The notes beneath the pieces were generated by a model. The model was not told where the DNA came from, searched no databases, and saw only the letters and a program-made list of their open reading frames with translations. Positions 3,533 to 41,040 of a DNA stretch of 43,537 nucleotides are shown piece by piece. The DNA is taken from assembly GCA_021815205.1 (NCBI GenBank), contig JAKAHD010000002.1:1-43537 (forward strand), given 5' to 3'. Source of the DNA: a bacterium. GTDB taxonomy: Bacteria > Patescibacteriota > Minisyncoccia > UBA6257 > GWB1-50-10. The translations under genes and the position numbers were made by a program. Numbering within the stretch: the stretch's first letter is position 1; each line of letters starts with the position of its first letter.

Positions 3533-5287
3533 ATGGATACCGAAAAACGAATATGCCAAAACTGCAAACAGGAATTTGTCATCGAACCCGATGATTTTTC
3601 ATTCTATGAGAAAATAAGGGTTCCGCCGCCCACGTGGTGCCCGGAGTGCAGGATGAAGCGGCGGATGGTCTTCAGAAATGAGCGGAAGCTCTTCCACACT
3701 AAAGACGGAATAACAGGCAACTCAATCCTCGCACTTTACCCGCCCGAATCCGGCTACATTATTTATGACGATACGTATTGGTGGGATACAAGTAAATGGG
3801 ATCCGATTTCTTACGGTGTTGATTTTGACGAGAACAGGCCGTTCTTACTTCAATTATTTGAGCTTAATAAACGTGTTCCTAAATATCGCCGTGCCGCTAT
3901 CAATATGGTAAATAGCGAATACTCCGCGAATGCCGCCGATCTCAAGAACTGCTATCTTTTGTTCAATTCGAACTATTCGGAGGACTGTGCTTATGGAAAT
4001 GGCATTGATTACAGCCGCAATTGCTATGATAACTCTCATATTCAAAAATCAGAAAAATGCTATGGTTCTTTTTGGCTCACCGCGTGTTACGAAAGTCATT
4101 TTTCTTCTCAGTGCGAAAATTGCATTTCCGTATGGTTTTCAAAAAATTGCCGCGGTTGCAATAACTGCTTCGGTTGTGTGAATTTAAGAAACAAAAACTA
4201 TTGTTTCTTTAATGAACAGCTTCACAAAGAAGAATACGAACGCAGATTTGCAGAACTTCATCTTGATACGTGGAGCGGTCTCGCGGTCGCGCAAAAAAAA
4301 GCCGACGCCTTTTGGCTTCAGTTCCCCATTAAATATCTGCAAGGCATTCAGAACGCGAACGTGAGTGGTGATTTTATCTCCCACTCAAAGAATGTTTACC
4401 GAGGTTATCTAATCCGTGAATGTGAAGATGTTCGCTATATCCAGTATTCACAAGTTCCCTCAAGTCGTGACTGTATGGACGGAACACTCATCGGCAATCA
4501 TTCGGAGTTGTTGTACGAGACTTCAGTGTGTGGGTGGGGTGGCAGTAATCTGAAGTTTTGTTGGGAGTGTTGGGATGACGTTCGCGATCTGGAATATTGT
4601 ATTTTCTGCGGGCACGGCGCTTCCAATCTTTTCGGCTGTGCTGGTGTTTTGAAACATCAGTACTGCATTTTAAATAAACAATACAGTAAAAATGATTATG
4701 AGTTTCTGAAAAAAAGAATCATCGAGCATATGGATAAACTGCCGTATGTTGATAGAAAAGGAAGGGTGTATAAATACGGAGAATTTTTTCCGCCGGAGTT
4801 CAGCGCATTTGCTTACAACCAGACAATCGCATCGGAGCATTTTCCGCCCACACAGGAAGAGGCCGAAAAGTTGGGAATCCGCTTACAAGAACCAAACCCG
4901 ACTGAATATGAAACGACCATACACGCAAGCGACCTTCCCGATTCAATCAAAGATGCAGCGGATTCGATACTCAAGGAAGTAGTTCGGTGTGAAACGTGTA
5001 AACGTGCTTATCGGATAATTCCAGTCGAGCTGCACTTCTTGCGCCAGATGAATTTGCCTCTTCCTCGGCACTGTATCGACTGCCGTCATTTAGCACGGGT
5101 AAGCAAGCGCAATAAGGCAGTATTTTATGAGCGGCAGTGCTCCTGTGATTATAAGGTCTATAAAAATACTGGTGGTCATATGCACCACCCAACGGGTCGC
5201 TGTTTGAATAGGTTTATTACTAGCTACGCCCCCGACCGACCGGAGATCGTGTACTGCGAACAATGCTACCAGACGGAGGTAGTGTAA
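3533..5287 (+). CDS. Cys-rich multi-zinc-ribbon repeat protein of unknown function, paralog 1
   Basis: CQNC, CPEC, repeated CxNCFGC units, CETC/CIDC and terminal PDRPEIVYCEQCY; colinear with 34335-36113. Confidence 0.8.
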   Translation: MDTEKRICQNCKQEFVIEPDDFSFYEKIRVPPPTWCPECRMKRRMVFRNERKLFHTKDGITGNSILALYPPESGYIIYDDTYWWDTSKWDPISYGVDFDENRPFLLQLFELNKRVPKYRRAAINMVNSEYSANAADLKNCYLLFNSNYSEDCAYGNGIDYSRNCYDNSHIQKSEKCYGSFWLTACYESHFSSQCENCISVWFSKNCRGCNNCFGCVNLRNKNYCFFNEQLHKEEYERRFAELHLDTWSGLAVAQKKADAFWLQFPIKYLQGIQNANVSGDFISHSKNVYRGYLIRECEDVRYIQYSQVPSSRDCMDGTLIGNHSELLYETSVCGWGGSNLKFCWECWDDVRDLEYCIFCGHGASNLFGCAGVLKHQYCILNKQYSKNDYEFLKKRIIEHMDKLPYVDRKGRVYKYGEFFPPEFSAFAYNQTIASEHFPPTQEEAEKLGIRLQEPNPTEYETTIHASDLPDSIKDAADSILKEVVRCETCKRAYRIIPVELHFLRQMNLPLPRHCIDCRHLARVSKRNKAVFYERQCSCDYKVYKNTGGHMHHPTGRCLNRFITSYAPDRPEIVYCEQCYQTEVV

Positions 5288-25471: not shown

Positions 25472-26350
25472 ATGCCCATCGTTCCCCAAGAAGTGTTCAA
25501 GTACATCGAGCGGAAATCGGGAAGATTTATTCTCATCTTCCTTCTCCTTCTTGTGCTTTGTGTGTGGCTCCTCGTGCGCATCACGCAGGCGGATCAAAAA
25601 GATCTCGCCATGTACTTTCTGCCCGTGGGGCAGGGGGACAGCGAGCTTGTGATCTTGCCCGGAGGCGCGAAGATCTTGATTGACGGGGGACCACCAACAC
25701 TCAATACGGTCCGCGCCTTGGACAAGGTGCTTCCCGAAGGCACGCGCACGATCGATGCCGTCATAATGACACACCCCCAGCTTGATCATTATGGCGGTCT
25801 TATTGACGTCGCGAGGCGGTACCAGATCGGTATATTTGTTTCAAACGGATTCTCCTCCGGTTTGGGTTCGTTCAGCGAACTGCAGTCGCTCCTTAAAGCG
25901 CACAAGGTGCCGCAGATCATTTTGCATAAAGGGGACGCGATCCGCTACGCCTCGAGTACGTTGCTCGTGCTCGCGCCTCCCGTGGAAATAAAGAGTGTTG
26001 CCGATCCAAACGAGGCGGCAATTCTCTTGGAGCTCTTCTCGAAGAACACGACGGCGCTCTTTATGAGCGATGCGACCGCAGAGATGGAACAGGATGTCGC
26101 AAAGCAAGCGGGGCCGGTGGATGTACTCAAGGTAAGCCATCACGGGTCGAAGTATTCCTCCACGGAGTATTTTCTCCGCGCAACATCACCCACAATTGCC
26201 GCGATCGAGGTCGGAAAGAACACGTACGGCCATCCCACGCCGCAAACACTCGCGCGTCTCAAGGCAGTCGGCGCAAAAATATTTCGCACGGATAAGGACG
26301 GGCTCATCATGATCCGAAGCGACGGAACAAGTATCACGGTTTTGAAATGA
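25472..26350 (+). CDS. ComEC-type metallo-beta-lactamase-fold hydrolase
   Basis: VGQGDS, LIDGG, THPQLDHYGG, LKVSHHGS, YGHP and RTDKDG motifs. Confidence 0.9.
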   Translation: MPIVPQEVFKYIERKSGRFILIFLLLLVLCVWLLVRITQADQKDLAMYFLPVGQGDSELVILPGGAKILIDGGPPTLNTVRALDKVLPEGTRTIDAVIMTHPQLDHYGGLIDVARRYQIGIFVSNGFSSGLGSFSELQSLLKAHKVPQIILHKGDAIRYASSTLLVLAPPVEIKSVADPNEAAILLELFSKNTTALFMSDATAEMEQDVAKQAGPVDVLKVSHHGSKYSSTEYFLRATSPTIAAIEVGKNTYGHPTPQTLARLKAVGAKIFRTDKDGLIMIRSDGTSITVLK

Positions 26351-29194: not shown

Positions 29195-29236
29195 CCTTCC
29201 ACGGGTGCTATGCTATAGCATAGCACCCGTGGAAGG
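29195..29236. repeat. 24-bp-core palindrome family, extended to a 42-bp perfect palindrome
   Basis: ccttccacgggtgctatgctatagcatagcacccgtggaagg. Confidence 0.92.
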
Positions 29237-29326
29237 CATCGATTCAAAAAGAGAAAAAGGGAGTATACTATAATTATAGGAGAAGAAATTATGAGCGCGG
29301 AACAAACCGTACGCGAACACTAGCAT

Positions 29327-29767
29327 ATGGGAAAAGACATCAAGAGGAAAAAAGTACGCATACCTTCCGTTTCCATGTATCCATCGCGGAAGGAGTGGGA
29401 GATTGCGGTATGGAGAATGATGATGCGCTCCCCGGATCTGCTTGGTGTGGTGATTACTCCCGGCGAACGCCACGATCTTGTGATACGTACCGCGGTGAGA
29501 GAAGGCATTCGTTCCGGAAAAAGCTATCGTGAGATCGGAAACGAATTATGGTGTTCTCCGCAAACCATAAGCGGCATCAAAAAAGCGCTTCGCGAGGAGC
29601 GCTATCGAAGCTACTGGGAGCGAGGCAAAACAGAACGGAAGAAAAAAACATACTCCCGATCTTCTCACGATACGGCATGGCGCGAGCCGCGAAGAAGGAC
29701 AAGGCGAGTTACCGGCACGGTATCGCTGGGCGGCATCACAAGAACCCGCTACCCTGAATCGAGGTAA
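29327..29767 (+). CDS. TrpR/YerC-like helix-turn-helix protein
   Basis: ITPGERHDLVIRTAV...GKSYREIGNELWCSPQTISGIKK matches the Trp-repressor-type HTH pattern; basic tail. Confidence 0.7.
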   Translation: MGKDIKRKKVRIPSVSMYPSRKEWEIAVWRMMMRSPDLLGVVITPGERHDLVIRTAVREGIRSGKSYREIGNELWCSPQTISGIKKALREERYRSYWERGKTERKKKTYSRSSHDTAWREPRRRTRRVTGTVSLGGITRTRYPESR

Positions 29768-29774
29768 GCACCAT

Positions 29775-29800
29775 GGGTGTTATGACGCGTCATAACACCC
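29775..29800. repeat. 24-bp-core palindrome family, variant GGTGTTATG-ACGCGT-CATAACACC
   Basis: 26-bp perfect palindrome 7 nt after the stop of the HTH gene. Confidence 0.92.
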
Positions 29801-29895
29801 CCCAAGAGGCATGGACTTTTTGAAAAATACATGGAAAAAAACAGAAGAATGGAATGAAGGATGATGACATGCACGGAGCGCAAGAAGTCGTCTAA

Positions 29896-29923
29896 CAGGT
29901 GCTATGCTATAGCATAGCACCTG
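29896..29923. repeat. 24-bp-core palindrome family (CTATAG centre)
   Basis: caggtgctatgctatagcatagcacctg. Confidence 0.92.
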
Positions 29924-31337: not shown

Positions 31338-33929
31338 ATGCAACGCAATAAAAAACTTATTCTCAAATTCGAGGAGATCACCATAAAGGACGTGCCGCTC
31401 GTGGGAGGAAAGAACGCTTCCCTTGGGGAAATGATCCGCTATCTTGCGCCGCAGGGGGTGAGGATTCCAAGCGGATTCGTAGTGACCGCCGCAGCATACC
31501 GCTCCTTCTTAAAAAAATCCCGAATTCCGAATCCCGAATTCCAAATAAATCCAAAATCCAAGAAAATAAAGAAGAAGATAACGCTGGAGAGTTTTATTAA
31601 AACCACTCTTAAGGGACTTGATACGAAAGATCTGAAGAATCTTGCGGAACGGGGGAGATTGGTGCGGGAAACGATAAAAAAGACGGAGCTTCCTAGCGAT
31701 CTGAAACGCGCAATCGCGAACGGGTATGCCAACCTCGAAAAGCGGTACGGCAAAAATGCCGATGTCGCGGTGCGTTCTTCGGCAACCGCGGAAGACTTGC
31801 CCGGCGCAAGTTTTGCGGGAGAGCACGACACCTATCTGAATATGCGGGGCGTTGATGAAGTAATCGAAGCGGTGCGCGCCGCGATGGCTTCGCTTTTCAC
31901 CGATCGCGCGATTTCATACCGCGTCGATAAGAAGTTTGATCATTTGAAAGTCGCGCTTTCCGTGGGAGTGCAGAAAATGGTGCGGTCCGACAAAGGCGCC
32001 TCGGGTGTGATGTTTACCGTGGACACCGAATCCGGGTTCCGTGATCTCGTGATCATAAACGGTTCGTGGGGACTTGGGGAGATGATCGTGCAGGGAGAAG
32101 TAACCCCCGACGAGTTCCTTGTTTTCAAAAAGAATTTAGAGATCAGCATACATCAGCCTCATCAGCATACATCAGTGTTGCATCCAATAATCAGCAAAAA
32201 GCTCGGAGTAAAAAACAGAAAGATGATTTACTCCGAGGGACGCGGCATTAAAACAACGAAGATCATAACTACAAACGAGAGGGAGAAAGATACTTTCGTG
32301 CTTTCGGAAAAAGAAGCGTTGCATCTTGCGGAGTGGGGGGCGCTCATAGAGAAACATTACTCAGAAAAGAATAAGAAATGGACCCCGATGGATATCGAAT
32401 GGGCGAAAGATGGGAAGAACGGCGAGCTGTATATCGTTCAGGCTCGCCCCGAAACCGTGCAGGCGGGAAAGGATTTTTCGAAAATCAAGGAATATAACCG
32501 GAAAGAGAACGGGAAGATTCTCGTACGGGGTGCGTCCGTGGGATCGAATATTGCGAGCGGGAAAGCCCGTGTAATACTCGATGCAAAACGCATTAAGGAG
32601 TTCAAGACGGGAGAGGTGCTCGTGACGACGATGACCGACCCCGACTGGGAGCCGATTATGAAGATCGCCTCGGCGATCGTGACGGACAAGGGCGGCCGCA
32701 CCTCCCACGCCGCAATCGTTTCGCGCGAGTTGGGGATTCCTTGTGTAGTGGGCACGGAGAACGCGACAAGGATCATACGGACGGGGCAGGAGGTTACCGT
32801 AGATACGACGGGAAGCGAGGGGTTCGTGTTTGCGGGCACGTTGAAGTTCGAGGTAGTTGAACATGATATAAAAAAGATTCCGAAACCGAAGGTGCATATC
32901 ATGGTGAATATTGCGACTCCCGATTCCGCGTTCGAAAAGTCATTCCTGCCGACAAACGGCGTGGGACTCGCGCGCGAAGAATTCATCATCGCGGGCGATA
33001 TCGGCATTCATCCGAATCTGCTCCTTAATTTTGAAAAAATCAAGAAGAAATTCAAAATTCTCCCCCTGCGGGGGATCTCCCAAAGAGACACAAATTCTAA
33101 ATTACAAACAAATTCCAAATTCAAAATTTCAAAAGACGAAGTAAAACGTTTGGTAAAAAAAGTGGAAGAAAAAATGGGAGGGTGGAAAAGCCCGACGCAA
33201 TTCTATGTCGATAAGTTGGCATACGGGATCGCGAAAATCGGCGCGGCATTCTATCCGAAGCCGGTTATCGTGCGATTTTCCGACTTCAAAACGAACGAAT
33301 ATCGTACGCTTTTGGGCGGCGATCTCTACGAACCCAAGGAGGAGAACCCGATGATCGGATGGCGCGGCGCATCGCGATATTACAACCCGAATTTCGCCGA
33401 TGCCTTCGCGCTCGAGGTAAAGGCAATGAAAAAAGTGCGAAACGAGATGGGGCTCACGAATATCATTCCGATGATCCCGTTCGTGAGGACCCCCGAGGAG
33501 GGGAAGAGGGTGGTGGGTATTATGAAAAAGAACGGGCTCTCGAGGAAAAAGGATGCGACCCTCAAGATATACATGATGTGCGAAATTCCATCGGATGTGC
33601 TCCGCGCGGACGAGTTTCTCGACATCTTCGACGGCATGTCGATCGGCTCGAACGATTTGACCCAGCTTACGGTGGGGATCGACCGCGACGGGAATGAGTC
33701 CGTGCGCGGCATCACGAACGAGAACGACGAGTCGGTGAAGAAATTTATTTCCGAAGTTATTCAGACGTGTAAGAGAAGGAAAAAATACATCGGCATCTGC
33801 GGCCAGGCGCCGTCGGATTACCCCGAGTTTGCCGAATTCCTCTTAAAAGAAGGAATCGACAGCATTTCCCTGAATCCCGATACGGTTATCAAGACCACAA
33901 TTGCGCTTGCGAAAAAACACGGTAAATAG
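31338..33929 (+). CDS. ppsA: Phosphoenolpyruvate synthase (pyruvate, water dikinase) with in-frame insertions
   Basis: VGGKNASLGEM, VRSSATAEDL, DIEWA, GGRTSHAAIVSRE, EENPMIGWRG, SIGSNDLTQ and ICGQAPSDYP. Confidence 0.97.
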   Translation: MQRNKKLILKFEEITIKDVPLVGGKNASLGEMIRYLAPQGVRIPSGFVVTAAAYRSFLKKSRIPNPEFQINPKSKKIKKKITLESFIKTTLKGLDTKDLKNLAERGRLVRETIKKTELPSDLKRAIANGYANLEKRYGKNADVAVRSSATAEDLPGASFAGEHDTYLNMRGVDEVIEAVRAAMASLFTDRAISYRVDKKFDHLKVALSVGVQKMVRSDKGASGVMFTVDTESGFRDLVIINGSWGLGEMIVQGEVTPDEFLVFKKNLEISIHQPHQHTSVLHPIISKKLGVKNRKMIYSEGRGIKTTKIITTNEREKDTFVLSEKEALHLAEWGALIEKHYSEKNKKWTPMDIEWAKDGKNGELYIVQARPETVQAGKDFSKIKEYNRKENGKILVRGASVGSNIASGKARVILDAKRIKEFKTGEVLVTTMTDPDWEPIMKIASAIVTDKGGRTSHAAIVSRELGIPCVVGTENATRIIRTGQEVTVDTTGSEGFVFAGTLKFEVVEHDIKKIPKPKVHIMVNIATPDSAFEKSFLPTNGVGLAREEFIIAGDIGIHPNLLLNFEKIKKKFKILPLRGISQRDTNSKLQTNSKFKISKDEVKRLVKKVEEKMGGWKSPTQFYVDKLAYGIAKIGAAFYPKPVIVRFSDFKTNEYRTLLGGDLYEPKEENPMIGWRGASRYYNPNFADAFALEVKAMKKVRNEMGLTNIIPMIPFVRTPEEGKRVVGIMKKNGLSRKKDATLKIYMMCEIPSDVLRADEFLDIFDGMSIGSNDLTQLTVGIDRDGNESVRGITNENDESVKKFISEVIQTCKRRKKYIGICGQAPSDYPEFAEFLLKEGIDSISLNPDTVIKTTIALAKKHGK

Positions 33930-34083
33930 GAATTGGGAATTGAGTAATTAGTAATTTGAAATCTGGATACATAAATCAAAATCTCCAAGTAGAAACATTC
34001 TTTTACCCAAGGAGGAACCAAGCGGAGCGGTAATCACCGTGGTGTATCGTCAGAAAAAGTCATTTTAGCTGTAGGGAATGTAA

Positions 34084-34107
34084 GGTGTTATGACGCGTCA
34101 TAACACC
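34084..34107. repeat. 24-bp-core palindrome family (ACGCGT centre)
   Basis: ggtgttatgacgcgtcataacacc, identical to the core at 29776-29799. Confidence 0.92.
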
Positions 34108-34246
34108 CGTGTCTTTTTTAGGACCTCAGTTTCGTGCGTATGCACGGAACTGAGGCCAGCGCCCGCATGTTCAATAGTTCCGAGATTGTTATATAATAAC
34201 GGTATGTCTGCCTATGGCAGATCTCCCGTAGGGAGACAACCCATTC

Positions 34247-34300
34247 ATGAACCCCGAAGTAAAAATCTGCAAAGATTGCCATCAATTCGGGGTTATATGA
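34247..34300 (+). pseudogene. Truncated 5' remnant of a third Cys-rich paralog (MNPEVKICKDCHQ...)
   Basis: The first 13 codons align with MDTEKRICQNCKQ and MNQEKRTCQNCKQ; the frame stops immediately before a palindrome. Confidence 0.6.
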
Positions 34301-34301
34301 C

Positions 34302-34327
34302 GGGTGCTATGCTATAGCATAGCACCC
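34302..34327. repeat. 24-bp-core palindrome family (CTATAG centre)
   Basis: gggtgctatgctatagcatagcaccc, 7 nt before ATG 34335. Confidence 0.92.
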
Positions 34328-34334
34328 CACTTCC

Positions 34335-36113
34335 ATGAATCAGGAGAAAAGAACATGTCAGAATTGTAAGCAATCCTTCGTCATTGAACCGGATGATTTC
34401 GGTTTCTATGAGAGGATGCGGGTGCCGGCGCCGACATTCTGTCCTGCCTGCCGCACGCAACGGAGAATGGCATTCCGGAACGATGGATTTTTATATAAGC
34501 GAAAGAGCGATTTTTCCGGAGAGAGCATTTTCTCGATGTATTCGGAGAAATCCCCAATAAAGGTATATGAGCTTGAAGCGTGGTATTCGGATAAGTGGGA
34601 CCCCATAAGTTATGGCAGGGATGTTGATTTTTCAAGGCCGTTTTTCGAGCAGATTCGCGAGATGTTTCAAGAAGTCCCGTGGCGAGCGAGAGGTATTATT
34701 AAGCCCGTGGGGAGCGAATACTCGAACAACTTCACTGGATTCAAAAATTGCTACCTCTGCTTTAACGGCAGCGAATCGGAGGAATGCGGCTATTCGAACG
34801 GGCTGGATTATTCCAAAAACTCTTTCGACAACTCCCATATCGCGTATTGCGAACTCGCCTACGAAGGGTTTTGGCTCACGAGATGCAATACGATCGCGTT
34901 CTCGTCACAATGCGAGGACAGCTTCAATATTTGGTTTTCAAAGAATTTGCGGGGATGTTCGAATTGTTTCGGATGTGCGAACCTCACGAATAAAAGTTTC
35001 TGTATTTTCAACAGACAATATACGAAAGAAGAATATGAAAAGGAAATCCAGAAATACAATCTCGGTTCCCGTAGCGCGGTAAAAATGTTATGGCAGAGGG
35101 CGCAAAAGTTTTGGTTGCAGTTTCCCGAAAAGTTCATGCAAGGAGCGAAAAACTCCAGAGTGAGCGGAAACTACATCAATCAGTCGAAAAACGTGTTCGA
35201 GTCGTATCTCGTTCGAAGCGGCGAAGACTTGAAGAGTTGCCAATATCTTCAGACGGGACCCAACAAGGACTGCCGGGACCTTACGTTCTTTGTGGGGAAC
35301 GAACTTGTGTATGAAGCAGCCCAATGTGGTGATGGCGCGTATAATCTGAAATTCTGTTTTCAGTGCTGGACGAATGTAAAAAATCTCCAATATTGTACGA
35401 GCTGTCTTTCTTCTTCCGATTGCTTCGGGTGTTCAAGTTTGCGCAATAAGCAATATTGTATTTTGAACAAGCAATATACGAAAGAAGAATATGAAAAACT
35501 CGTTCCGAAAATCATCGCGCACATGAACGAGATGCCGTATGTGGATGAAAAAGGAAGAAAATATTGCTATGGTGAATTCTTCCCGGCCGCGTTTTCTCCC
35601 TTTGCATACAACGAAACGATTGCACAAGAGTATTTTCCGCTCACGAAAGACGAAGCGGCGGAACAAGGATATGCATGGAAAGATCAGGAGGCAAAGGGAT
35701 ATAGCGTTACGCTTCCCGTCGAAGAAATAGTGGACGATATCAAATTCGCGGACGAGAGCATTTTAAATCAGGTAATAGAATGCGCGCATGAAGGAAGATG
35801 CAACGATCAGTGCACGAAGGCATTTAGAATCATTCCGCAGGAACTCTTATTCTATAAAAGAATGAATCTGCCCATCCCCGATCTCTGTCCGAACTGCAGG
35901 CATTTCGAACGCTTGAAGCGAAGAAATCCGATTCACCTCTGGCACCGCGCCTGCCAGTGCGCAGGTACGAAATCGGAAAACGGAGTATATACGAATACCG
36001 CAGCGCATCAACACGGGGCGGGGAAGTGTACAAACGAATTCGAAACCAGTTATTCGCCCGACCGTCCCGAGATCGTGTACTGCGAGCAGTGCTATCAAGC
36101 TGAGATAATTTAG
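34335..36113 (+). CDS. Cys-rich multi-zinc-ribbon repeat protein of unknown function, paralog 2
   Basis: Colinear with 3533-5287: CQNCKQ.FVIEPDDF.FYE, KWDPISYG, CSNCFGC, YCILNKQY, YGEFFP and PDRPEIVYCEQCYQ. Confidence 0.8.
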   Translation: MNQEKRTCQNCKQSFVIEPDDFGFYERMRVPAPTFCPACRTQRRMAFRNDGFLYKRKSDFSGESIFSMYSEKSPIKVYELEAWYSDKWDPISYGRDVDFSRPFFEQIREMFQEVPWRARGIIKPVGSEYSNNFTGFKNCYLCFNGSESEECGYSNGLDYSKNSFDNSHIAYCELAYEGFWLTRCNTIAFSSQCEDSFNIWFSKNLRGCSNCFGCANLTNKSFCIFNRQYTKEEYEKEIQKYNLGSRSAVKMLWQRAQKFWLQFPEKFMQGAKNSRVSGNYINQSKNVFESYLVRSGEDLKSCQYLQTGPNKDCRDLTFFVGNELVYEAAQCGDGAYNLKFCFQCWTNVKNLQYCTSCLSSSDCFGCSSLRNKQYCILNKQYTKEEYEKLVPKIIAHMNEMPYVDEKGRKYCYGEFFPAAFSPFAYNETIAQEYFPLTKDEAAEQGYAWKDQEAKGYSVTLPVEEIVDDIKFADESILNQVIECAHEGRCNDQCTKAFRIIPQELLFYKRMNLPIPDLCPNCRHFERLKRRNPIHLWHRACQCAGTKSENGVYTNTAAHQHGAGKCTNEFETSYSPDRPEIVYCEQCYQAEII

Positions 36114-36247
36114 AAGCAGATCACGCAGAAATGTACGCGGATATACCCCTCACATAAATACTTATGTGAGGGGTATACGCAGATGCGTTCTGCGTCAATC
36201 TGCGGCGCTTCTGCGTTATCCGCTTCTATGTGTTACAATATCGGTAT

Positions 36248-37261
36248 ATGAAAATAGGTTTTTTTGAGCTTGAGGGATGGGAGAAGGATGTTATCATAAA
36301 AGCGCTTCCGGAGCATGAGTTGTATTTCAGCGACAAGAAGATCAGCGAAGACGAGATGCCCGAGAGGCGCGACTTCGACATCGTTTCCCTCTTTGTGAGT
36401 TCGCGGGTCACCGCGAAAGTGATTGAAGAGTTCCCGAATCTGAAGCTCGTCACGACGAATTCGACGGGATTCGACCATATCGACTGCGCGGCATGCAGGG
36501 CGCGCGGCATCACGGTGGCATATGTTCCCGGGTATGGCAATAATACCGTCGCGGAGTATGCGTTTGGCCTCCTTTTGAATCTTACGAGGAAGATTTACCA
36601 GGCGATTGATCAGATCAAGGAACGCGACGATTTTTCGCAGAATAACCTCCGCGGTATCGACTTGAAGGGGAGAACAATGGGAGTCTTGGGTACAGGGAGA
36701 ATCGGAAGGGAAACGATCGCGATCGCGAAAGGGTTCGGGATGAAAGTGATCGCGTTCGACCCGTACCCGAACGCGCAGGCGGTGCAGGAGCTCGGATTCG
36801 AGTATAAAACGCTCGACGAGGTGCTCGCGAATGCCGATTGTATTTTGATTCATTGTCCACTCTCGGACTCGACGCGCCATCTTATCAACATGGAGAATGT
36901 AAAAAGGATGAAACGCGGCGCGTATCTCGTGAATACCGCACGGGGGCCGATCGTCGAGACCGACGCGATCGTGTACGGACTCCAAAACGGCATTCTCGCG
37001 GGCGTGGGTCTCGACGTACTCGAAGAGGAGGGGGAGACGAAAGATGAGTTGCAATTTCTCGCAAAATCCGGAACCCGCGAGGAAGAACTGCGGACAATTC
37101 TTGAGAATCACGTGCTCATGAAAATGCCGAATGTCCTCATCACGCCGCACAACGCGTTTAATTCACAGGAAGCGTTGATGCGCATCTTAGGCACTACGAT
37201 AGAAAATATCAAAGGGTTCGTTGGAAATACGCTTAATCCGAAAAATATTGTTCCAGTGTAA
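36248..37261 (+). CDS. D-isomer-specific 2-hydroxyacid dehydrogenase (D-lactate dehydrogenase-like)
   Basis: STGFDHID, VAEY, GTGRIG, HCPL, VNTARG, LDVLEEE and TPHNAF motifs. Confidence 0.92.
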   Translation: MKIGFFELEGWEKDVIIKALPEHELYFSDKKISEDEMPERRDFDIVSLFVSSRVTAKVIEEFPNLKLVTTNSTGFDHIDCAACRARGITVAYVPGYGNNTVAEYAFGLLLNLTRKIYQAIDQIKERDDFSQNNLRGIDLKGRTMGVLGTGRIGRETIAIAKGFGMKVIAFDPYPNAQAVQELGFEYKTLDEVLANADCILIHCPLSDSTRHLINMENVKRMKRGAYLVNTARGPIVETDAIVYGLQNGILAGVGLDVLEEEGETKDELQFLAKSGTREEELRTILENHVLMKMPNVLITPHNAFNSQEALMRILGTTIENIKGFVGNTLNPKNIVPV

Positions 37262-40910: not shown

Positions 40911-41016
40911 AAAGAGATAACACGGGAGACAAGGCGAAACTACGCGGAAACGCCCTCGTGTTAATCTGCGGACTCATATTTTGAGGTCATCCTCGATGAT
41001 AGGAAGTTGTATAGCA

Positions 41017-41040
41017 GGTGCTATGCTATAGCATAGCACC
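41017..41040. repeat. 24-bp-core palindrome family (CTATAG centre)
   Basis: ggtgctatgctatagcatagcacc. Confidence 0.92.

Follow-up and report, generated by a model that had tools for sequence, protein, structure and literature searches.

A mini-frame of 17 codons upstream of a large cysteine-rich zinc-ribbon gene of Patescibacteria is probably a dead copy of such a gene, collapsed head to tail. The window, that is, the whole 43,537-nt stretch analyzed, is part of contig 3 of a patescibacterial genome (735 kb, 12 contigs). It carries, in order, ppsA (31338-33929), a 405-nt spacer, the cysteine-rich gene (34335-36113, + strand), and a 2-hydroxyacid dehydrogenase gene (36230-37261; Pfam). The mini-frame occupies 34247-34300 of the + strand and is an open frame reading MNPEVKICKDCHQFGVI, followed by a stop codon. 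The succession reported in the earlier note, namely this frame, a palindrome (34302-34327), and the intact gene with its ATG at 34335, was confirmed at the level of coordinates.

The intact family gene encodes a 592-aa protein, for which no family in Pfam or NCBIfam was found above the cut-off, and the protein atlas labels it as a putative zinc-binding protein, nothing more. The family is very large; at least 7,992 of 8,000 scored candidates passed the family threshold of E 0.001, and all of them are unnamed or "hypothetical." The N terminus is strongly conserved in this family.

Head and tail of the mini-frame

The family DNA profile of the head covered 33 nt, from the ATG to the second Cys codon, and was built from 30 family N termini of four congeneric genomes. 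When every ATG, GTG, and TTG position of the genome was scored (n = 62,293), the first 11 codons of the mini-frame reached 27.0 bits and ranked sixth. Four real family genes scored 42.4 to 32.2 bits, and three stubs scored 28.7, 27.0 (the mini-frame), and 26.7 bits. The best background start position scored 14.7 bits, leaving a 12-bit gap below the mini-frame. The other two stubs are located just 5' of the paralog on contig 12. The head of the collapsed paralog (34247-34279, +) extends from the start codon to the second Cys codon of the N-terminal zinc-knuckle motif, and the match of the nhmmer N-model covers 34247-34285. The family motif Met-x-x-Glu-x-Lys/Arg-x-Cys-Gln-Asn-Cys is present, with Cys-Lys-Asp-Cys replacing Cys-Gln-Asn-Cys, and the full-length body of ~590 residues with internal repeats is absent from the 17 codons. 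The mini-frame is a remnant, not a member gene, of the cysteine-rich zinc-ribbon family.

The match to the family N terminus claimed in the earlier note is upheld by the rank of the DNA profile, whereas a protein profile (21 residues) placed the mini-frame third among the non-gene matches with 10.8 bits and a genome-wide E of 0.63, which is not significant alone. The nhmmer N- and C-model matches on the mini-frame had E values of 1.7 and 8.9, neither of which is significant genome-wide. Other top profile matches, two on contig 1 (near 13141 and 35764) and two on contig 8 (near 8349 and 14602), fall within other genes or on their opposite strand and were regarded as chance matches. A further candidate for a collapsed copy, with its start at 29811, had to be rejected (rank 400, -9.5 bits).

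The family consensus at the C terminus is Cys-x-x-Cys-Tyr-Gln-x-Glu-Val-Val-stop, and the mini-frame ends with Cys-His-Gln-Phe-Gly-Val-Ile-stop, followed by 2 nt and the palindrome. The putative tail of the collapsed paralog (34277-34300, +) reads as C-terminal codons in decay (Cys, Tyr>His, Gln, x, Glu>Gly, Val, Ile) up to the stop, where the match of the nhmmer C-model has its last base. In the DNA profiles (31 tails for the C terminus), codons 12-19 scored -17.6 bits as an N terminus and +8.2 bits as a C terminus. A head/tail chimera scored 31.6-36.6 bits with the switch anywhere in codons 7-14, as compared with 9.4 bits for an all-head and 5.4 bits for an all-tail model, placing the chimera 22-27 bits ahead of the all-head model. 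In the controls, real heads scored at most -9.7 bits under the tail model and real tails at least 9.6 bits. With a profile of 163 tails, the mini-frame tail scored 3.6 bits (real tails, at least 8.6; median, 29.5), ranking ninth in the genome, and this score was reached by 67 of 51,383 background stop-ended words. Protein-level scoring left the two readings tied (all-head, 22.7 bits; chimera, ~20) and cannot split them, so that the DNA profiles are needed. Most of the tail evidence comes from the last three to four codons of the mini-frame. The same codons precede the palindrome copies at 29898 and 41017 of the window, where no other family remnant accompanies them; the palindrome with a short flank could thus have come by another route.

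Of 35 family 3' ends examined in the four congeneric genomes, 7 have a palindrome of the same superfamily ~2 nt past the stop; in this genome, one directly follows the stop at four of the six nhmmer-found family 3' ends. Because tail, stop, and palindrome appear to form a normal family 3' end, the palindrome is suggested to be the deleted gene's own downstream element and the deletion to be internal to the gene. The earlier note had linked the palindromes to turnover of the family and had read a scar of paralog deletion or replacement at the hairpin. The link is borne out by the family 3' ends, and the scar by the copy-number variation and the non-orthologous gene described below, but a deletion at the hairpin is not supported.

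Sister modules, the inverted repeat, and the proposed origin

The module of mini-frame, palindrome, 7-12 nt, and intact family gene is also present in two congeneric genomes. In G001 (contig 2), a 20-codon frame (10 head and 10 tail codons) is followed by 2 nt, an identical palindrome, 7 nt, and a family gene. In G003 (contig 20), 10 head codons, a 57-nt in-frame hairpin insert, an intact 10-codon tail, and the stop lead, across 2 nt, to a slightly degenerate palindrome, and a family gene begins 12 nt after it. In the three-way alignment, the window mini-frame is 9 nt short, missing the three codons that open the C-terminal Cys-x-x-Cys. Its head is identical to those of the other two mini-frames at 22 and 23 of 30 nt, as compared with 21 of 30 for the best functional N terminus, a difference too small to show a common descent of the three modules.

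Upstream of the head, a family-type promoter box of the leaderless kind, TATAAT (34192-34197, +), stands exactly at -12 from an ATG (34204-34206). This spacing is that of the family: among 30 family genes of the four congeneric genomes, 6 have a TAnAAT that starts at -12 relative to the ATG, and the G002 gene at this site is one of them. A strict two-hexamer sigma-70 scan found no + strand promoter. An inserted two-hairpin repeat (34207-34221 and 34222-34236) and a 10-nt spacer fill the stretch up to the new ATG (34207-34246, +). Of the second 15-nt hairpin, the genome contains 40 matches (up to two mismatches, both strands), mostly within arrays of small hairpins, and an element related to the two-hairpin repeat is found 5' of the paralog on contig 12. 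The intact gene itself is without a promoter box, and its position resembles that of an array-internal gene.

We propose the following course of events. A family gene would once have been the first of a two-gene array, driven by a leaderless promoter (box at 34192, old ATG at 34204) and closed by a 3' palindrome (34302-34327), both its own; 7 nt further on, what is now the 592-aa gene would have begun. A two-gene array with a collapsed first gene is the simplest picture because the -12 box stands at the old ATG and none at the intact gene. An internal deletion of ~1.7 kb would then have run from the N-terminal Cys-x-x-Cys codons to the last Cys-x-x-Cys-Tyr-Gln codons. These two stretches have short sequence identity in common, and such microhomology may have caused the deletion. 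What was left over would be ~10-13 head codons, ~5-7 tail codons, the original stop, and the palindrome, presumably as a functionless scar. The dispersed two-hairpin repeat would have lodged directly after the old start codon. Later, and only in this lineage, several neighboring bases of the tail may have changed together, which brought 9 nt into perfect complementarity with codons 2-4; template switching at a quasi-palindrome would be the simplest mechanism.

The 9-nt perfect inverted repeat (arms 34250-34258 and 34286-34294, +) had been taken in the earlier note for a fold-back signature. The repeat itself is real and beyond chance: it occurred in 12 of 20,000 family-model sequences, in 42 of 20,000 shuffles, and in none of 930 real head-by-tail combinations, where the maximum was 7 nt. 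The template-switch reading attached to it, in which only 13 N-terminal codons were kept and the rest was template-switched during a deletion ending at the palindrome, is an unlikely account of the whole frame, though the best of the alternatives. Beside the rarity of the repeat, it is favored by the predicted RNA or DNA fold, in which the start and stop regions of the mini-frame pair and lengthen the stem (the 146-nt region folds at -65.5 kcal/mol with z = -7.3, of which other hairpins supply most). The 3' arm corresponds to the x-Glu-Val codons of the tail, exactly where the tail leaves the family consensus, and stubs elsewhere likewise break at or just past the Cys-x-x-Cys codons. However, what follows the arm, from the next codons through the stop and the 2-nt gap to the palindrome, is a standard family 3' end. 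The part past codon 13 resembles a family C terminus and is not foreign sequence, and the two sister modules share the layout of head, tail, and palindrome without the repeat.

No such inverted repeat is present in the G001 and G003 modules, and it is thus not needed for the structure and is lineage-specific. At the positions that create the pairing, the arm differs from the consensus and from the tails of both sister modules, which are possible homologues. Under the head-to-tail collapse that we prefer, the repeat fits a later quasi-palindrome template-switch change and not the cause of the truncation. Quasi-palindrome template switching is a known type of mutation (PMC7202029, PMC8604942, PMC5941160). 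As in those mutations, clustered base changes here would have turned an imperfect inverted repeat into a perfect one, with arms 27 nt apart; the difference is that the direction of change is deduced here from the family consensus and two possibly homologous modules.

Gene remnants, which are short relics of pseudogenes, have been described in the reduced genomes of Rickettsia and Mycobacterium leprae. The mini-frame resembles them as a probably nonfunctional leftover of a deletion in a small, deletion-biased genome with neighboring paralogs intact. It would differ from them as a precise fusion of first and last codons that is still open and has the original start, stop, and 3' element, and the same layout recurs in two congeners.

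Palindromes and small elements around the remnant

The earlier description of the frame as trapped between palindromes does not hold, since the upstream palindrome is 140 nt off and a hairpin, the promoter-like box, and the hairpin element intervene. This upstream copy (34084-34107) is a perfect 24-nt palindrome of type P1, one of the 47 superfamily palindromes of the genome. Together with the T-run that follows (34084-34119, +), it is the sole terminator-like + strand site within 33850-34450. The intervening hairpin (34124-34155, +) is imperfect, with 14-nt arms of 93% complementarity and a 4-nt loop. Nearer to ppsA, 33936-33988 (+) is possibly an older relic, composed of a family-type intergenic spacer and the first codons of a further copy. 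This weak assignment comes from local alignment with congener copies and with the paralog at 3533, of which the spacer and start were used; the alignments scored 29-31 vs shuffle means of 18-20 (p about 0.002-0.012, 500 shuffles each); nhmmer did not detect the relic.

The palindrome after the mini-frame (34302-34327) is a perfect 26-nt palindrome of type P2 that ends 7 nt before the next ATG, and no T-run follows 34327. Its 24-nt core has 22 copies in this genome (18 exact and 4 with one mismatch), 5 in G001, none in G002 and G003, 1 in G008, and none in 36 other relatives. Seven of the 47 superfamily palindromes, the copies at 29898 and 41017 included, are directly after a family-like "...Val-Val-stop" tail; most of the 47 are not beside family genes, and the copies are dispersed in a REP-like manner. 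REP/BIME and the Rickettsia palindromic elements are dispersed, near-identical palindromes that form small hairpins between genes. The elements here are likewise dispersed and intergenic, and some are read in frame, as is the 57-nt insert of the G003 mini-frame. Unlike REP/BIME, the palindrome here is perfect, has 22 copies vs 0-5 in congeners, and prefers the position 2 nt past the stop of one family. Judged by titles and the first parts of abstracts, the papers returned by a literature search contained nothing on palindromic repeats in Patescibacteria. The superfamily palindromes may be 3' elements, operators, or mobile repeats.

An operator function is brought to mind by a small gene (29327-29767) between two superfamily palindromes (29204-29799), which has Trp-repressor and HTH matches of 22-23 bits (cut-off, 27). 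The flanking of a small HTH gene by such palindromes resembles Trp-repressor-like operators; the differences are that the Pfam matches are below the curated cut-off and that nothing ties this regulator to the copy at 34302. The arrangement enters a second alternative, in which the mini-frame and palindrome are a selected leader, with translation opening the palindrome or the palindrome acting as a repressor site. The module is open in three congeneric genomes, even with the 57-nt insert in G003, the family-conserved residues of the head are retained while variable ones differ, and neither a promoter box nor an obvious ribosome site precedes the intact gene. Against these points, the tails decay differently, with Tyr>His and Glu>Gly in the window and with two Cys>His changes and Val>Thr in G001, and frames of 17-49 codons are fairly often open by chance. 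Most family genes are without such a leader, an upstream stub being found in a minority only, and the palindrome has no T-run after it. The remnant does not fit a ribosome-mediated leader peptide or attenuator, which would be expected to have a T-run terminator or alternative pairings before the gene, conserved across the family. A selected leader is accordingly improbable, and clearly more so than the fold-back origin.

In a metagenome sample of 80 loci with family genes (497,704 nt, 148 full N termini), at least 10 N-terminal stubs lie 76-176 nt 5' of a complete family start. Most of these stubs break at or just past the Cys-Gln-Asn-Cys codons and are then followed by a palindromic element; four of the six distinct elements with GTCCCG...CGGGAC ends stand directly after the Cys-Gln-Asn codons. 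This regularity of breakpoints across loci is unexplained by random decay. The stubs also count in favor of a further reading, in which the structure is the work of a small mobile element of palindromic form: it would either have brought along a new 5' end for the gene or have deleted adjacent DNA, from its resting site before the intact gene to a target in the Cys-x-x-Cys codons of the upstream gene. The distance from stub to gene here (88 nt) is within the metagenome range, and the two stubs 5' of the contig 12 paralog are accompanied by hairpin elements. At this locus, however, what separates stub and gene is a family tail with its 3' palindrome, not an element with terminal repeats. New N termini beside related elements are not especially alike, and no intermediate, with an element inside an otherwise whole gene, was found. 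The mobile element is therefore slightly less credible than even the leader, and a replacement 5' end brought by an element was rejected as unsupported at this locus.

The regularity of the breakpoints is the basis of a broader idea, which we regard as rather unlikely: the changes of copy number in the largest protein family specific to Patescibacteria may be driven by small palindromic elements. If the recurring junctions of stub and hairpin across Patescibacteria reflect targeted insertion or element-mediated deletion, they would provide a concrete mechanism for the swings in copy number of this family. One kind of element sits 2 nt past the stop and others at the Cys-Gln-Asn-Cys codons or at start codons. 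In such a scheme, tandem paralogs would collapse precisely, and the open head-only or head-to-tail mini-frames might be reused as the leader of the next gene.

Lastly, a chance open frame unrelated to the family can practically be dismissed: the protein profile by itself (E 0.63) would allow it, but the frame ranks sixth of 62,293 with a 12-bit gap over background, lies 35 nt 5' of a family gene on the same strand, and belongs to a module present in two congeners.

Paralog turnover at the site

The comparison with relatives proposed in the earlier note, of copy number and of the interval from ppsA to the dehydrogenase gene, bore out in substance that a paralog was deleted or replaced. At E 1e-30, the family has 5 matches in this genome and 23 in each of three congeners; elsewhere the number varies from 0 to 25, and of the 41 genomes searched, 26 have no family match and the rest have 1-25. 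The congener genes stand in tandem, each stop touching or overlapping the start that follows, and the -12 box is found in first genes (the 6 of 30 mentioned above). The G002 site consists of ppsA, one family gene, and the dehydrogenase gene, with an 88-nt spacer containing only a hairpin and a promoter box. The same gene is found in G001, whose contig begins there. In both genomes, the gene at this site belongs to a different subfamily from that in the window. Among distant relatives, ppsA adjoins the dehydrogenase gene in G007 and G020, and in G022 and G005 the gap contains no family gene.

A quick tree of 31 rows contained 23 copies from loci of the four congeneric genomes (21 of them among the ~75 matches of three congeners) and 8 database homologues. 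In it, the site genes of G001 and G002 pair as sisters (support 100), and the intact gene of the window groups with a database homologue in another clade (support 98). The intact gene is 48-53% identical to the G001 and G002 site genes, as compared with 85-87% for ppsA and 72-77% for the dehydrogenase. With the flanks conserved and the intact gene non-orthologous, the paralog at this site differs between close species, and these comparisons support a turnover of paralogs here.

A full-length strain variant, which the earlier note had thought might be found, was not seen in the contigs of four DNA read sets, and no RNA set containing this stretch is listed. In each set, a single contig spans at least 33778-34900 and agrees with the window at every base, without insertions or deletions; the four come from one study, probably the source of the assembly, and contigs cannot show the absence of a variant. 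Contig joints from 34108 to 34298-34302 have only 24-26 nt on one side and were set aside as cross-matches between palindromes.

The scar is real and well defined, with a finer anatomy than the earlier note proposed. It is ordinary in kind, and its use is as a dated footprint of turnover in a family with 0-25 matches per genome among 41 relatives. As we read it, it shows that the family may shrink by near-complete internal deletions, that paralogs at one site are exchangeable between close species, and that the palindromes of this genome stand at fixed places relative to family coding ends. Further family fragments are present in this genome, namely an internally deleted copy at position 60844 of contig 3 and C-terminal pieces on contigs 2 and 8.

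Truncated N-termini upstream of other family genes

Upstream of the paralog of the cysteine-rich zinc-ribbon family on contig 12 of the same genome (~25873-26118; positions 1200-1560 of locus L029), a P1-type palindrome is accompanied by two successive N-terminal stubs, which scored 28.7 and 26.7 bits against the DNA profile of family N-termini. Both stubs end immediately 3' of the second Cys codon, where each gives way to a copy of one and the same hairpin element; the full-length gene comes after them. Among metagenome loci on diverse patescibacterial contigs, family N-terminal stubs were found 76-176 nt 5' of a complete family start (L048, L066, L083, L088, L093, L101, L105, L114, and L122). 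Most of these stubs are broken off at the Cys-Gln-Asn-Cys codons and separated from the family start by a palindromic element, and in three cases the stop codon of the stub overlaps the new ATG.

Sequence around the probable collapsed paralog and at the orthologous site

Immediately 3' of ppsA, positions 33936-33988 of the window bear a weak resemblance to the A/G-rich spacer and opening codons of family genes, and this segment may represent an older, more decayed relic. A 37-codon frame (34204-34317) opens at the old start codon, crosses the hairpin element and the 17-codon remnant frame out of phase, and closes within the palindrome. At the orthologous site in the congener G001 (contig 27, ~208-245; loci L013/L020), the family gene carries an in-frame TAA at codon 12 and is otherwise open for 565 further codons; the gene could be a recent pseudogene, the TAA could be an error of sequencing, or translation could restart downstream.

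P2 palindromes and family gene number

Two more P2 palindromes of the window (29880-29921 and 41005-41040) are each preceded by "...Glu-Val-Val-stop" codons at the usual spacing of 2 nt, resembling a family 3' end; no further family remnant was found near either site. Across the whole genome and 40 relatives, the 24-nt core of P2 occurs in 22 copies in this genome and in 0-5 copies in its congeners, whereas family gene matches show the opposite trend (5 versus 23). This inverse trend is suggestive but is drawn from four genomes.

A small gene between palindromes

Within 29204-29921 of the window, a small gene (29327-29767) is flanked by two palindromes, P2 at 29204 and P1 at 29776, and its Trp-repressor and HTH matches are both sub-threshold. 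It may be frameshifted, because a second, overlapping frame (29548-29757) encodes the conserved C-terminal end. A paralog with an identical layout is present on contig 12.
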